From positions 16,492,001-16,556,000 of the forward strand of contig OZ024751.1 of the NCBI GenBank assembly GCA_964016885.1: DNA of 64,000 nucleotides. Reading direction: 5' to 3'. This DNA comes from Eledone cirrhosa. Taxonomy: Eukaryota. The position numbers and the translations under genes were made by a program. Below, one piece after another: positions 4,201 through 61,444 of the stretch; position 1 is the stretch's first letter, and each line of letters begins with the position of its first letter. The notes under the pieces were generated by a model, which ran no database searches, was not told where the DNA came from, and saw only the letters and a list, made by a program, of their open reading frames with translations.

Positions 4201-4417
4201 AATAAACCTTTCAAGGATTTACACAAATCTAGCCTCCTGTCATTTCATTATAATATTTAACTCCGTAACAGCACCACCAACTACAAAAAAAAGACGGTTG
4301 AACTGCTTTACGTTGAGTACTCTCTATATTATTGCATTACGATTGACCATACGGAATAGACCAGCTCTATACAGTGGTGAACCTCAAACCTGAATATATA
4401 TATATATATATATATAT

Positions 4418-5324
4418 AAAGAAAAAGGGATGAAATCGAAAATGCAACTGAAGTCTTATTTTTTTGTTTTTTTAAATATATATATTTATTTGGTTCCTTT
4501 ACCGGGTTCGCAGTTCTTCTGCTTTTCAAAAGGTGAGTTGAGATGGAGGGTCTGTGGTTTTTCTCACATCTGGTTGGTCTCTAAATGTTACTTGTTTTAT
4601 ATGGAAAAAGTGGCTCGAAAACCAGGTTTTTCGAGAAGTAATTTGATTGGTTTGTCAATAATTATAATAAATTTCGCGCCAGCTCGCGTTACAATAGTTC
4701 TTCAAATAAGAGAGGGGGGGGGGGTTGTCACAGGTTGTTTTTTCATATATGAGTGTTTGAATTTCTTTTTACTTGAAAAAATGAGGCTCACGAAGGCTTT
4801 TTTTTGGTTGGTTATAAATGAAATTTGGCTGTCACGTGAACAAGTTTTCATTACATTTTTGCGCCCTTATTTGGAAAACTATTTTGTAGTCTTTATAGTG
4901 AATGTTATGACAATGGAGAGATAGTGGTCAAAGGAAAAGGGATTGGGAGAAATGTTCTGGTTCAGTGAATATGGCCAGCTGTCAGAGTTCAGGTGTCAGA
5001 GTTCAGATTTTCTATTGAGACTGAAGATATGTGTTTATTTGTGTGCTTGTGTGTGTGTATATGTGTGTGTGTGTGTATTGGAAGATGATTCTATTGGTAG
5101 AGATGGGGGAGGGAGTTGTGTGTGTGTGTATATGGGTGTTATGTGTGTGTGTGCGAGTATGTTAGATAGAGAGAATATATATTTTGTGTGTGTGTATATA
5201 TATATGTGTGTAGGAAAGTGGTTCTATTAGTAGAAATGGGGAGGGTGTTGTAGGTGTGGGGGTTGTTATGTGTGTGTATGGGTATTATGTGTGTGGGAGT
5301 ATGGTTAGCATGTTAAGATGAAGA

Positions 5325-5361
<37 letters not shown>

Positions 5362-5905
5362 GTGTGTGTGTATGTGTGTGTGTAGGAAAATGATTCCTTT
5401 AGTAGGAATATTTTTGAATGAACATATCTTCCTGACTTTTTCGTGTTTGCTGTTGTATTGCCAGTGCAAACGTATGTTTAAGGTTTATTTAGTTCGGGTT
5501 TTTATTTTCTAAAGTAGGTGTTATGTGTGTGTGTGTATGTCATATTGTGGTGTTGACATAATGTATATTAAACCTTATTTAATGTTGGTCCATATTTTTG
5601 AATAAACATATTTTCCTTATTTATTCGCATTTGTTCTGTTGTATTGTTAGCGCAAAGGTAAAATGGGAAGACTTGGAATTTGGGTGTCTTATTACTTGCG
5701 CAAATGTCTAGATATGCACTTAGTGGTATCTGTCTCGTGGTTGGATCTCGTAATTGTTGGCGATGAACTGTCATTCTGTTTCTGAGTGTGAGTTTAGTTG
5801 TGTCCTATATAATCTTCATTGCATCCTTTACATTTAATGGCATAAATTAGATTTTTTGATGAGCAAGTGAAGTGATTTTTTACAGTAAAATTTTGTCCTG
5901 ATTTA
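4418..5905 (-). mobile_element. 3' end of a Penelope-like element (Neptune-type GIY-YIG endonuclease, 3' UTR, hammerhead-bearing terminal repeat)
   Basis: Minus strand 5568-5880: HFTCSSKNLIYAIKCKGCNEDYIG-(frameshift)-LRNRMTVHRQQLRDP...KENMFIQKYGPTLN; terminus 4418-4570 matches 60535-60830. Confidence 0.85.
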
Positions 5906-5914
5906 AATGTATAC

Positions 5915-5967
<53 letters not shown>

Positions 5968-7140: not shown

Positions 7141-7177
7141 ATTTGATAATGCAGAAAAATGCTGAAACCGGTAATAG
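7141..7177 (+). ncRNA. Hammerhead-like motif, U3-A8 variant
   Basis: AT-TTGATAA-[GCA/TGC]-GAAA-CCGG-TA-AT; short stem I. Confidence 0.5.
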
Positions 7178-14006: not shown

Positions 14007-14697
14007 ACAGACGGGCACACACACATATATATATATATATACATATTTATATATATATATATATGCATATTCATATATATGCATATATATACATATTCAT
14101 ATATATATATTGTTATACTTGGGGAGGGTCATATTGTTGTAATAATATTGCCAGAATTAATAACAGAACACACTCATTGGTTGGTTGGTTTTCGCTTCTG
14201 TATCTTTTATATCAGTTAATTTATTCGGTCCTCAATGTTTACCATTGACTGACCAACGGTCAAAAATACAGATATAATATAGATATACACACATATATAT
14301 AGCCTAACAAAGTTCTTTCGTTGCACATCTGCAACATCGTCAGTGGTGCTATTATGTTGTATTGTATATTTACGACACCTTTATTTAATCTGTTTATGTA
14401 TTTATTTTTTTATTTTTGTCTTCTCCGCGCATGCGTTTGCGCGTGTTTCGTGTTTGGTGTGTGTTCGCGTTTGGGTGACTGTGTTTTGGTTATTGTATTA
14501 TAGCATGTTTACTAGTGTGTGCTTATATGTGTTTGTTGTTATTGTGCTTGTGTATATATTTATTTATTTATATTTCTCTTAAGTCAGTATTGTTTGTTTG
14601 GAAGTTGTTATTCCATCATTTTTTCTGTTTAGCTTTGGCCTTTTAAGTTCTATTTCACTCGCCTCTCTGATTTGCCGATCTGCTGGGTCATTATATA

Positions 14698-52859: not shown

Positions 52860-55800
52860 GCCGACGTTCTAACGTGTCTGACAACCCATCGCCGTCTTCT
52901 TCAAATGCAATAATGATTTAATACCGACCGATATAGGTGATAGGAAAATCGTAGGCGTAATTTCTAATTTAGACACAAACCCAAGAATTTGGAGGGGAGG
53001 AGTCAGCCAGAATACTTCCGCGTTGAATGTTGCAGATTGGAGTTTCAATCTTCGCAAAGTTCAGCGGGAGTTTGAAACTGGAATGAGCGATGCGACCTCC
53101 GTAGAGAAGAGTCGCTGCAATTCCAGAGGAAGCAACGGCCAGTGCGATCCAACTGTTCTTTCTCACCGTTGTTCTTTCTCACCGTTTCTCAAGTGGTTGA
53201 TGACGAATGTCTTTCCCGTGCCTCCTGGAGCATCAACGAAGAAGAGGCCACCCTTGCTGGTTGTCACATCATCAACAATGGTGTTGTAAGCCAGTTGCTG
53301 ATCATGGATCAATTTGGGTTCGTTGGTATTAATAAACTCATGAAGAGCACTGATCTTGTAGCTCGTCTCGCGGAGAAGCTCTGTAGACGTTGACCTCTGG
53401 ACACTCCTGTCAGGAGCAGGTAAGCTGTAGTGACTTAGAGGCCTACCACCAATCCCCAGGACACTATTTTCAAGACAAATCAGCGCCTCATTGAAAACGA
53501 CATCGTATGTTACGTTCGGATATTGTCTGCGTGTGCGGTGGAGGATGTCCTCAGCTAGACTTCCGCAGTGGTTGTTCCACAGTGCGAGAGGGTCGGCGAG
53601 ATCGCAGTTGTGCAGCAAAAGAGCAAAAAGTGTTCGCAGCTGAGAAGGGACTTTAGCAGTTGCTGCTTCTTGCAGGGTGAGGTGCCAATGGCTGTCATCG
53701 TGTAACATACCACGCATCTGGCAAGCCAAACGGTAAGTGGAACATTGATGGCCATTGATGGTTCTCAGATCTTGGAAAGACTGTGGTCCTCTAATCTCGA
53801 ACAGGAGCATTCTTAGGAAGAAACACTCGAACTGAGTCGGATGGACGCTGTAGACCCTTCCAAGAACATCTGCTGACTTGATCTGAGGGTGTCCTTCCAC
53901 TGCTTTGCCAGCCTATCTACGCTACCACAATCGGGTTGGTCTGTTCCGTGTGTAGAAGCGGGGAAGTTGCCAATAGAAGAGTGTTTGTGCGAATTCGTCT
54001 TCTTGGCAGAGCTTGAAAAAGCCCGTAGGTGTTGTATTCTTCGGTGGTTCTTGAACAATTTGAGCAGCCTGTTCTGGATGGAAGAAAACTCTCTGGCCAT
54101 TTTCGAGATGCACTGCCAGGTGCTCGACTGCAGGATGGCGTTCATGAAGTGGGAATCCGAGAATTCCCCACATGGACCATGAACCATTTGAGTTCTGATA
54201 ACGTCGAACAGCCTCTGGGTTTCTGCAGGATCAGTGAGTTCAGCATTTATCAATGAGTCAATCTGGGAAGGACGGATTTTCTCGATTAGCCAGATTAGAA
54301 TGTGGGCATGGGGAAGTCCACGTTTCTGCCACTCAATGGTGCACATATCACATCGTGTTGGTCCAAAGATTTCTTACTTCGTTAGGATTGACATGAGCTT
54401 CATAACTTTCAGACGGAATACTCTTGCAATAAGGTCATGACGGTGAGCGGACGTTTGGCCAGGAAGGAGTTCACCAGTTATTTCATACACTTTGGGTTGC
54501 ATGTGAAGGTGATGAAAAGGTCGGGACAGCCATAGTGCCTCACGTATGTCATTGCATCTTGAGTCTTCTCATGCACATATCGAGGACTTCCTGCGAAGGT
54601 GGAAGGGAGGATGACCAACTTACCAAGCTCGTGGCCATGTCTGGCATCATTGTTCACAGCATCACGAAGGTGAGCCTAGTTGTCAGCTCGAAGTTCCTTC
54701 TGATGCCTTGCAGTATAAGCAAGGCGTTCACTCTCTATCTTGGCATACATGTCAACGACAAACTGGTGAAATAGATCGCGTGCTCGGTGAAGATGATCGA
54801 AGTTGTTTGAACGAAGCATCAGGTGAAAGGCATAACAATCCATCACAGATACTTTCTTGTTTGTTGGCTCACCATTAGATCCAGCTTTGACAAAGCAGCC
54901 AGTGGTATCCATGCTCCCCTCTTGTGTACAGAAGTGGGTACTGAAGGCCATCGTATGCTTTGTTGGTGTCGGGAGTTTTTTTTAGACCTTCATCACGATG
55001 TCGGATGACTATATCACGCTTTGCCCCGATGTGACCAGCAAGGACAGCTGCAGCCTCTGCAACAGCTGGAGCATTGAAGCGTCTACGATGCTCACAAGTT
55101 GGAACCTTGTCAGGGTGTATAACAATGTCGAACATTTTGGCTGGAGGGTTTTCAATGGCGAATTTAAAGTTTTGAATCAGCCTGTTTGAGACACTTAACA
55201 TGTCCTGTAACTGGCGAATGTTTTCAAGTCTGGTTCCTGAGATGGCTCGATGGCGACGTATCGCTTGTGAATCTGCATCTCCAATGAAGTAGATTTACAA
55301 AAACTTGTAGTCTTCTCCCGACAGGGGTAGGAGACTTCCAATCGTGTGGTACATTTGGCCCTGTACTTTAAATCTGGACATGTATCCGCCATGATTAACT
55401 TCCTTTTCGGCTCCGAAACTCGTCATTTGAAAGCAGCTATTGTAACTCCTTATGTTTGCAAGGAAGTGACGGCTATCACCGCTCTGGCCTGAGAAGAGAC
55501 TTTTGAGCTGTTCCAAAGGGCAAGTGAGTAGGGGCAAACTGATTTTGCCTCCACTGCACCACATGCCTGGCACCTACCTGTGCCACTTGAGAGCTTGACA
55601 ATGTGGGAAAATAGTGTTCATGGATCCAAGTTCAGAAGCGATAGAATAGTCGACGGTCGAGTCATATCGAAAGGCTGAACCGGCGGTTTTAGGGCATCTC
55701 TGACTTGTTGACCAGCAGTGTAGGCTTCTCTGATAGGTCCAACTGTCAACCGAAGTTGTTTCTCTCTCACCTGTAGAATAATTTAAAAAACATTATTTGC

Positions 55801-57515
55801 TCATTACAGTTCCTTTCAAAACTCAATCCTACCGCTAGTCGTAAAATATTCGACCATCTCCAAATGTCCTACTCCAGTGTATGTATTATAATGAAGCGGA
55901 TTTTTGGGGCCTATATCAATGTTCCCATCGATTATGATACTATTTTCTTAATAAGCAGCCAAATTATACTTCTGAAGTTCGACAGTTTTACTGAATATCT
56001 GTAGAAAAAACTCAAAATATTTGACAAATGAAACTGTTGAAACATGGAAAATCTATTTACTTTTAAAGGAGTTACCTTTGGAAAAGTCCATTTTGGAAAT
56101 ATAATATTTCGTTGTGCCGAAAGATTGGGACTCAAGATGCACTGTTAAATTATCAATGCTCGGCTCAACAAAAATCTAATGTGGAGGCGCATGTAGAAGC
56201 TTTCTATTGATAGCTGAACTGAACTGTTGATAGCGCTGTTTGATGCGACAAATTTATATACCAGAACAATTAACGTACAGGTTAACATTGTTGACCTGAT
56301 ATAAAATCTTTGACAACATTTTGATTACTGTAGGCAAACAAATATTGATGACTGCCCTGTAATGAATTTGCTCAGAATTTTTGTGCTTATGCCCTCTTAA
56401 ATATTGGACTCAGTTTGGCAAGGACCTATATGGCACACTGCTGCTGTAATGCAATGTGGATGCAAACAGCTTGTGAAATCACCTGCTCTAATCTGGCTTC
56501 TTCTGTCTGAGTTGCTCTCCTGCCTTTGCACGGGACCTCAGTTGCTGAAGGCGAGACTGGCGCTGCTCTTGAGACTGGGCTGATCGAATTGCTCTCGCTT
56601 GAGTCTTCATCTGCTGAAGGCGACGTTCATGATCATCTTCAGACTCTCTTGCTCTAGTAACATTTTTTCTTCTGGAAAATCTAATCTTGCGACCAGGCTG
56701 GGACCTTTTGTGTGGCATTGCGGCTCTGTCTGTGCTTTCGTGAAATAAATATGTTTTTGTGTATGTAAAAATATCTGTGCGCGGGGACATAGAAATTGTC
56801 GGGCTGGACACCCGATCGCGCTGTTAAACCACTAGGAGTGAAGGACCCCTAGCCTTTGTCAGGGCATTCTTCTAGGAGAAGCCAACTCAGGAAACTGGGA
56901 TAACTCTGATATAAAAGCTGCGGCTCAGTAGTTCCCGATGATGTTGATCTTTTCTTCTTTTCGGATTAGTGGGATTGGCTCAGTGCACAGTCTTTCCTCA
57001 CTTTAAAAAATATCTTCGGCCAGGCTGGGACCTTTTGGGTGGCATATCAGCTCCGTCTGTGCGTTTGTGTATGCAAAAGTATCTGTATGTAAGTTTAAGC
57101 AAATGCAAAAATATATGTATTTAAGTTTAAGCAAAGAATCGCTGCTTTCAACTTTAACGGAATTTTCTGAAACTAAAAAAAAATCAATCTGTGAACGCAG
57201 AAGTAAATTTTTCGAAAAAAGTTTTCTAATGCAGACAGGCAGACATACTGAGACATATAGCTATGTATCATCTAAAAAGACACTAAAAAAAGGTGAGGAA
57301 TGACGTATAACCGGAAGTGTTGACATTTGAAATTTTAAAGAAGTAAATATTTAAATGATGTCTTTAATCTTTTCACAAAATTCAGTAGACAAAAATACCC
57401 TCACTTTCTTACTTGGAAAAAGTTACATCTATGGTGCAAATTTGGTGCTGTTTGGTCCAGCCGCTTGGCAGAAAGTTTGTTACTTACATACGGTCGTCAG
57501 CATTGTAGTATATAT
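52860..57515 (-). mobile_element. Decayed autonomous Helitron (Rep-helicase), 3'-truncated
   Basis: N-terminal MPHKRS...EQRQSRL; CSGGKI; NIRSYNSCFQMTSFG; HRRRFNAP; QFVVDMYAKIESERL; YGCPDLFITF; HUH motif EWQKRGLPHAH; Pif1 Walker A DAPGGTGKTF; VASSGIAATLL.GGR.AHS; many frameshifts; 5' boundary approximate. Confidence 0.92.
55771..56482 (-). other. Putative intron in the Helitron Rep-helicase gene
   Basis: CAG|GTGATT donor and TTATTCTACAG acceptor bound an AT-rich gap between coding-like segments. Confidence 0.6.
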
Positions 57516-60354: not shown

Positions 60355-60476
<122 letters not shown>

Positions 60477-60720
60477 GTGAGGTTTTTTTTACAAAATGAA
60501 AAATAACCGAGGTGTCCTACACGAGTGAAAGTATAAAGAAAAAGAGATGAAATCGAAAATGCAACTGAAGTCTTATTTTTTTTTTAAATATATATATTTA
60601 TTTGGTTCCTTTACCGGTTTCGCAGTTCTTCTGCTTTTCAAAAGGTGAGTTGAGATGGAGGGTCTGTGGTTTTTCTCACATCTGATGTGAGAAAAACCAC
60701 AGACCCTCCATCTCAACTCA

Positions 60721-60758
60721 CCTTTTGAAAAGCAGAAGAACTGCGAAACCGGTAAAGG
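60721..60758 (+). ncRNA. Minimal hammerhead, U3-A8 core variant
   Basis: CCTT-TTGAAAA-[GCAG/CTGC]-GAAA-CCGG-TA-AAGG; inverted copy 60608-60645; copy 4496-4533(-). Confidence 0.7.
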
Positions 60759-60830
60759 AACCAAATAAATATATATATTTAAAAAAAAAATAAGACTTCA
60801 GTTGCATTTTCGATTTCATCTCTTTTTCTT

Positions 60831-60893
<63 letters not shown>

Positions 60894-61444
60894 TTTCTGA
60901 ATTTGTTTAGCAAGATTCCTTATCTGAAAACGTGTGTTGAAACTGATATTGTTATACTTTGGGAGGGTGATGTTGCCAATAAGAAACATACACACACCAG
61001 TCGCTTTCACTTCAATTTATTATAAATTTCCGGCTGGTTGGTTGGTTGGTTCTATAACCGGATGGTTGTTCATATATTGTCAAAGTTCTTTCGTCACTCA
61101 TTCTGTGACCTCTTCAGTGACTGGGGATTCTTTTCTTAATTTTTTATTTTGTGCCTCTCCTTTGTTTTGTCCTACGCCATCTTGTTTGGCGTAGGACAGA
61201 ACAAAGGAGAGGCCCAAACAAAGAAAAGAATCCCCAATCACTGAAGAGGTCACAATGTGTGACGAAAAAACTTTGACAATATATGAACAACCATCACGTT
61301 ATAGAACCAACCAACAGAAAATGTATAATAAATTGAAGTGAAAACGACTGGTGCGTGTGTTTCTTATTGGCAACATGACCCTCCCAAAGTATAACTATAT
61401 ATATATATATATATATATATACAGTATATATATACTTATATGTA

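Follow-up and report, generated by a model that had tools for sequence, protein, structure and literature searches.

The window analyzed here is a stretch of 64,000 nucleotides of contig OZ024751.1 from Eledone cirrhosa (assembly GCA_964016885.1). Its letters are AT-rich (31% GC) and rich in microsatellites, and the genome measures 3.0 Gb. The features considered below are listed in Table 1. The central one is a palindrome near the end of the window, which is a head-to-head pair of 5'-truncated 3' ends of a Penelope-like element (PLE) of a family named here F1. It is bordered on either side by (TA)n tracts, and both arms align with the full-length F1 element of locus L014.

Table 1. Hammerhead motifs and associated element fragments in the window
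Feature	Position	Strand	Remarks
F1 copy, longer, 5'-truncated	4415..5918	-	GIY-YIG ORF end, about 1 kb of 3' UTR, hammerhead, (TA)n
F1 hammerhead copy	4496..4533	-	GAAC in place of GAAA (A15.1 altered)
GIY-YIG endonuclease C-terminal fragment	5571..5907	-	Two frames; last 76 aa 95% identical to L014 protein
F2 U3-A8 hammerhead motif	7141..7175	+	UUGAUAA, GAAA, CCGG, UA; stem I 2 bp
Inverted pair of F4 3' ends	18232..18607	both	92% identity between arms
F4 U3-A8 motif	18452..18487	+	Family GCAA (A13C); extra G12A in this copy gives ACAA
Hydra-type Penelope element	26373..28100	RT N-terminal piece -, CxCX5C endonuclease piece +	Inverted junction; C3-G8 hammerhead motif at 28017
F3 U3-A8 hammerhead motif, decayed	33389..33430	-	CCAG here; F3 family has CCGG
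Longer palindrome arm	60456..60684	-	Complete element 3' end, then (TA)n; 92% identity to L014 element 3' end
Palindrome	60532..60834	both	303 nt, perfect, single centre base unpaired
F1 hammerhead motif, other palindrome arm	60608..60645	-	Letters identical to the motif at 60721
F1 hammerhead motif	60721..60758	+	Sequence and predicted fold

The plus-strand F1 motif reads CCTT / TTGAAAA / GCAG-AAGAA-CTGC / GAAA / CCGG / TA / AAGG. Stem I consists of 4 bp (60721-60724 with 60755-60758), the core from U3 to A9 occupies 60725-60731 (U3 U4 G5 A6 A7 A8 A9), and stem II, with 4 bp and the closing pair G10.1-C11.1, extends over 60732-60744. The GAAA at 60745-60748 (G12 A13 A14) is followed by the palindromic ACCGGU (A15.1-CCGG-U16.1) and A17, and the cut is predicted 3' of A17 (60754). 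Both F1 copies named here by the first-pass annotation, 60721 and 60608, are present; being the arms of one palindrome, however, they record one insertion event and not two. The palindrome is a dead, 5'-truncated, inverted product, and its motifs are remnants of inverted 5'-truncated insertions of the kind described as typical of such elements (PMC8557442). In a transcript running across it, the motif would be hidden within a 151-bp hairpin. Because the two motifs lie on opposite strands and face apart, a single transcript could not yield a double-hammerhead dimer from them. A pyrimidine-rich run and a CAG lie 5' of and inside the motif (60700-60740) and speculatively recall a 3' splice site, like that of Drosophila virilis Penelope, whose intron terminates at helix I (PMC4209133).

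All six sites cited in the first-pass annotation are present in the window, with corrections to the letters of three. The copy at 4496, given as GAAA, reads GAAC. A CCGG-type stem III holds for all the families but not for the copy at 33422. The ACAA at 18455 had been read as a GAAA that has changed; it is the family state GCAA with a G-to-A change at a CpG, that is, a decayed copy. The minus-strand F4 motif at 18383 has ACAA too, and its core is one A short. One copy had been described as attached to a Neptune-type GIY-YIG ORF, and this is borne out: the endonuclease fragment ends 1,042 nt upstream of the core at 4529(-), on the same strand. Rfam hammerhead models gave no match at E<=10 in 60690-60800 and none in the window among the matches listed (150 of 381). 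Rfam miRNA matches in the window were set aside as hairpin artefacts under the gathering scores.

The 3-8 Watson-Crick pair is U-A in all four families, F1 to F4. The remaining hammerhead core (U4 G5 A6 N7, A9, G12 A13 A14) is intact in F1, F2 and F3. G10.1-C11.1 closes stem II in F1, F3 and F4; in F2 the G-C pair comes after a basal U.U, U-A or U.C, of which U.U is frequent. A15.1-U16.1 and the palindromic helix III ACCGGU are followed by A. Helix I as read has 4 bp in the palindromic F1 copies of the window, 3 bp in the other F1 subtype and in F4 (three A-U pairs), and 2 bp in F3 and in F2, the family at 7143, where only two contiguous pairs occur. In their flanks F1 and F4 have diverged by about 1 change per site. 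Over the same distance the motifs differ only at position 13, in a stem-II pair where G-C has become U-A by compensation, in the loop and on the 5' side of stem I; the palindrome and the unpaired U4, G5, A6, A9, G12, A14 and H17 are retained. This comparison is good evidence that the F1-F4 motif has been under long constraint, and does not establish that catalysis today is the constraint.

Situated in the pLTR, the motif is in sense orientation to the RT/GIY-YIG ORF and follows it at a distance of about 0.45-1.4 kb. The protein of L014, a longer F1 copy, matches Pfam RVT_1 and GIY-YIG, both over cut-off. The motifs of F2, F3 and F4 are found downstream of related ORFs, 48-65% identical to F1 where the pieces are better preserved; the endonucleases used for the tree below are 48-59% identical to F1. 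A C-x4-C-x2-C linker is present in F1, F2 and F4 and is partly degraded in the F3 copies. The linker CX2-5CxxC is a signature of Neptune and is found in Nematis too (PMC8557442); the carriers of F1-F4 are classed as Neptune-type by this linker motif alone, which Nematis shares. Insertion ends in (TA)n and inverted pairs were seen, as for the Neptune clade of EN+ PLEs.

In an endonuclease tree of 22 fragments, F1-F4 fall into a single group together with one further element of unsettled position among them, and F4 is sister to F2 with modest support (84/97). The four families recognized in the first-pass annotation are one related group and do not provide four independent tests. The double change from C3-G8 to U3-A8 probably occurred once, in the ancestor of F1-F4. 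No C3-G8 outgroup was found within the Neptune-type group, where the nearest outgroup element (L106) has a 3' UTR broken by another repeat, so that we infer the direction and the single origin of the change.

In a further family, F6, the core is again U3-A8, stem II is GCCC/GGGC and stem III is CGTACG; the endonuclease upstream of it is of the Hydra type (CxCX5C) and has a long open frame. When F6 was constrained to form a clade with F1-F4, the AU test on the 22 endonuclease fragments rejected the grouping (p=3e-8). U3-A8 is present on two separate element clades in this genome and, by the literature, in Cercyon of Schistosoma. A recurrent origin of U3-A8 is the simplest reading; as the elements have no stem in common, transfer of the motif from one to another is unlikely. 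C3-G8 motifs lie 3' of Hydra-type fragments in the window and at L013, a link of adjacency at these two places (26851 to 28017 in the window). The tree label Hyd_CG_L160 was not accepted as a proven Hydra-type C3-G8 case, its ORF and motif being on opposite strands.

Genome-wide pattern counts were compared with those of reversed patterns or reversed sequence. The F1-type U3-A8 pattern gave 15,594 matches (control 0), far beyond what chance would give. TTGATAA with CCGG, mainly F2 and F3, gave 2,335 (control 2), and the F4 pattern with GCAA fixed gave 11,113 (control 0). About 29,000 U3-A8 motifs with a CCGG stem are thereby counted in the genome. With the same stem, U3-G8 gave 192 matches (control 38), C3-A8 241 (control 25) and C3-G8 115 (control 162). 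The patterns do not share one spacer length or final base, and the U3-A8 total is a sum over separate patterns and not the yield of a generic one; ratios between counts are therefore approximate. Palindromic insertions are counted twice in every case.

Cores with a mismatched 3-8 pair are rare and have the character of single copies in decay. Those among the matches listed are mainly single changes of F1-F3 or unstructured, and two small recurrent C3-A8 motifs among them have no clear stem II. In F3, 36 copies have U3-G8 versus 564 with U3-A8. On a tree of 30 copies of each kind, 21 changes were counted versus a shuffled mean of 20.2, and 364 of 500 shuffles were as low. The idea that U3-G8 marks an intermediate subfamily in the evolution of F3 was rejected, the copies being scattered on the tree and their proportion 6% versus a background A-to-G change of 3.7%; they are decay after insertion. 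L217 and L218, which combine C3-G8 with an F1-type stem, are old single copies, one of them at a rearranged junction.

Beyond the CCGG stem, 8,043 sites (control 494) matched a pattern with 3=Y, 8=R and another, longer stem III. By hand count, the first 100 of these listed comprise 48 U-A, 47 C-G, 4 C-A and 1 U-G, and represent roughly four families with C-G and five or six with U-A. The window and 400 kb taken irrespective of motif, 464 kb in all, were also scanned for the structure; there were 24 matches, of which 16 were C3-G8, 7 U3-A8 and 1 other; the reversed sequence gave 0. The earlier statement that C3 and G8 are replaced together holds genome-wide as covariation at the family level, single-change cores being rare, and independent variation of positions 3 and 8 was not seen among families.

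F4 is the second-largest family. With positions 12 and 13 left free, its pattern has 11,516 matches in the genome, and GCAA is found in 11,113 of them (96.5%). Lacking the invariant A13 of GAAA, F4 is a hammerhead-derived variant and not a consensus member, and as F1, F2 and F3 have A13, C13 is derived in F4. The family is young, and full-length, nearly intact copies exist. At six long F4 loci the longest alignments are 94-97% identical, and 13 of 13 motifs have GCAA under a pattern that also permitted GAAA. In the full-length copy L189, two pLTR motifs separated by 4.8 kb flank open frames of 455 aa and 654 aa plus the endonuclease; from the predicted cut site of the upstream motif to the first ATG is about 190 nt. 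The 455-aa frame (L189:4707-6071(-)) precedes and overlaps the RT frame and has no Pfam match. A similar frame is present in L193. This frame, which may belong to one ORF broken in L189, sets F4 apart from the elements described in PMC8557442. An older GCAU/CUGU subtype was considered as a GAAA sister of F4 and rejected, as it groups with F1. One GAAA copy that was checked groups inside F4 and is revertant-like.

A13C is either tolerated in the F4 core, or cleavage is dispensable for the spread of the element; the second is more likely. Judged from the sequences, A13C most likely lowers or abolishes cleavage in F4 without halting its spread. Its fixation in the second-largest family argues against strict selection for catalysis. 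Selection for catalysis had been deduced from the double change in several families; F1-F4 probably represent one change, and F4 has fixed A13C, so that this deduction is overstated. The independent evidence for covariation comes from other families such as the Hydra-type F6.

The best explanation, which we regard as probable, is that these motifs are minimal type-I U3-A8 hammerheads in the terminal repeats of Neptune-type PLEs and likely act as weak, dimer-only ribozymes that process tandem RNA. Two motifs on one tandem transcript would pair through the ACCGGU palindrome into a double hammerhead. This would cut slowly after A17 and release unit-length or re-ligated RNA, whereby RNA ends would be set or circularisation enabled. 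U3-A8 would have arisen once in the F1-F4 ancestor and separately in the Hydra-type element, and A13C would have been fixed later in F4. This role is the one proposed for other elements of the kind, and for the present motifs we infer every catalytic step. Metazoan PLE hammerheads are reported to have low activity, and that as dimers only (PMC4209133).

In the modelled F1 dimer the double hammerhead has -21.1 kcal/mol with the core open and -22.5 kcal/mol with a U3-A17 pair, and two monomers have -15.0 kcal/mol. Only in F1 does the co-fold prediction have this structure as its minimum, and there with U3-A17 closed. The hammerhead dimers of F2, F3 and F4 are modelled at 8-12 kcal/mol above the co-fold minimum owing to their weak stem I. 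The C3-G8 control L161 was disregarded in this modelling, as its stem III is not palindromic. Residue 17 is mostly A in F1-F4 and F6; U3 can therefore pair with A17, a pairing that closes the core and that the model prefers by 1.4-2.2 kcal/mol. This pair resembles the C3-G17 pair presumed to be inhibitory (PMC3884650). Additional U3-A8 families with a longer stem III (CAATTG, CGGCTG) and C17 were observed at L103:3181(-), L132:4528(+), L166, L172 and L163, and no linked ORF was found for them. Being free of U3-A17 competition, they are better candidates for activity.

The first-pass annotation held that U3-A8 preserves the 3-8 pair. This is correct for the pairing but need not carry over to the rate, given the modelled U3-A17 alternative and a full pairwise double-mutant scan of a type III hammerhead, in which only G3-C8 restored activity and other double mutants of the region were low (PMC9901934). 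U3-A8 ribozymes are stated elsewhere to have been shown active in vitro previously (Perreault et al. 2011, PMC3088659).

A reading that we consider unlikely is that the motif no longer cuts and persists for a structural or protein-binding role, in ACCGGU dimerisation, in RT recognition or as a promoter or splice signal, with U3-A8 and A13C as stages of relaxation. It accords with the fixation of A13C in a young family with full-length copies, with the weak stem I and the modelled closure of the core by U3-A17, and with the lack of U3-A8 rescue in the scan just mentioned. All copies inspected span the cut site and end tens to about 200 nt past it, usually in (TA)n; the RNA that was reverse-transcribed had thus been uncut or re-joined there, and this too agrees with a motif that does not cut. 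Craig et al. 2021 term the function of PLE hammerheads unclear and describe Naiads, elements without canonical hammerheads, also at very high copy number (PMC8557442). The retention of the unpaired U4, G5, A6, A9, G12, A14 and H17 against about 1 change per flank site speaks for the probable reading of weak ribozymes instead. So does the 3-8 pair, which is relevant only in the active hammerhead fold (PMC3088659) and yet covaries in unrelated families.

It is also doubtful that F4 is a working hammerhead with a re-wired core, more than 11,000 copies bearing three core changes (U3, A8 and C13). Here C13 would be accepted because residue 17 is A, the C17-A13 contact being swapped to C13-A17 with U3-A8 assisting. 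The 13-17 contact has been described (PMC7092961), and F4 has three loop subtypes that each keep the remaining core bases, a stem II of 4-5 bp and the palindrome. Among 2,214 contigs of run X2 on F4, chosen irrespective of the core, no alternative letter reached 10% within the motif, versus 11 polymorphic places in the flanks in run X2 or X5; this contrast is not significant (about p=0.17 with 39 of 261 bases, by our estimate). In run X6, 34 nt of the motif region were covered, and run X1 provided two contigs. A small C3-G8 family with GCAA (about 16 of 41 matches, whole-pattern control 33; e.g. C1:302796350) is a second case of A13C and has mostly C17, which indicates that C13 needs neither A17 nor U3-A8. 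Core substitutions typically cost 10- to 1000-fold (PMC7092961), and A13C may have arisen anywhere on the long F4 branch.

Chance, or decay of ordinary CUGANGA hammerheads through C-to-T and G-to-A mutation biased towards AT, is very improbable: the window has 31% GC and no transitions are commoner than these two (about 7.5% each in F3), but double changes exceed single ones about 100-fold and U3-A8 is the state of entire young families with controls near zero, so that copy-level decay is refuted, and mutational bias may explain why the swap was to U-A instead of G-C.

The U3-A8 swap itself is already published. Natural C3-G8 to U3-A8 covariants were reported as rare, with several examples, by Perreault et al. 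2011 (PMC3088659); here the same double change characterizes entire dominant families. The text consulted of that paper lists A6C, A6a, U13a and U15.1-A16.1, and not A13C. In PLEs, Cervera and de la Pena 2014 (PMC4209133) reported about 1,300 U3-A8 matches with UUGAUAA and UUGAAAA cores (UUGAWAA), which their first descriptor had missed and a new descriptor retrieved. The motifs in the window share with the metazoan PLE hammerheads described there, including Cercyon of Schistosoma mansoni, the type I form, the pLTR location, the palindromic short helix III and an apparently short helix I. Shared likewise are opposite-strand pairs 100-700 bp apart and the prevalence of truncated single copies. 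They differ from that account in copy number (more than 20 times higher, about 29,000 versus about 1,300), in usually lacking an additional base between 9 and 10.1, in their CCGG insert and A17, in their Neptune-type and Hydra-type carriers, and in one family with fixed A13C. The legible rows of its supplement alignment all have GAAA (one AGAAA), unlike the GCAA of F4.

C-terminal GIY-YIG domains, (TA)n sites and tandem or inverted 5'-truncated copies are shared with the Neptune/Nematis-type and Hydra-type EN+ PLEs of Craig et al. 2021 (PMC8557442). By the linkers given there, F1-F4 have CX2-5CxxC and F6 has CxCX5C without that linker. Canonical hammerheads were reported for these clades with a cuganga/gaaa descriptor, which would miss every U3-A8 family found here. 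The claim that CUGANGA-based searches overlook these motifs is upheld, and it extends to Rfam. U3-A8 motifs rank with the most abundant hammerheads of the genome, with about 29,000 on the CCGG stem and about half of the first 100 matches listed of the second class. Since they are abundant on two unrelated clades, standard descriptors overlook a large share.

No description of A13C as a family state was found in the literature text searched, and by that text the A13C of the family at 18455 is not previously reported. The remaining value of the observations lies in the scale, the second clade and the A13C family of 11,000 copies. Whether PLEs need their hammerheads is described as an open question in the field (PMC8557442). 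F4 with A13C and its relatives F1 and F2 with A13 are matched natural families that bear on it, F1 and F4 being young and abundant. If F4 is dead, it is a natural experiment in which a Penelope element with C-terminal endonuclease spreads without cleavage. If it is active, it has an undescribed catalytic core that CUGANGA/GAAA searches miss.

Several further features were observed in the window. A fragmented Helitron with Pfam Helitron_like_N and PIF1 helicase matches lies at 52900-56800 (-). An open non-LTR reverse transcriptase frame of 486 aa is found at 14671-16131 (+), with an RVT_1 match at E=1.7e-28; it is presumably RTE-like. More palindromic hammerhead-like pairs of other families, mainly C3-G8, are present at 2608/2796, 12325/12331, 20700/20766, 40333/40342 and 61117/61241, and in some of them the centre of the inversion lies no more than a few bases from the core. 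A repeated motif CTGAWAA...GAAA-CCGA-TA with a very short stem II occurs at 60924, 62377 and 43115, at one end of a common element. It is probably a deletion derivative of a hammerhead, and it also recurs among the genome C3-A8 matches listed.
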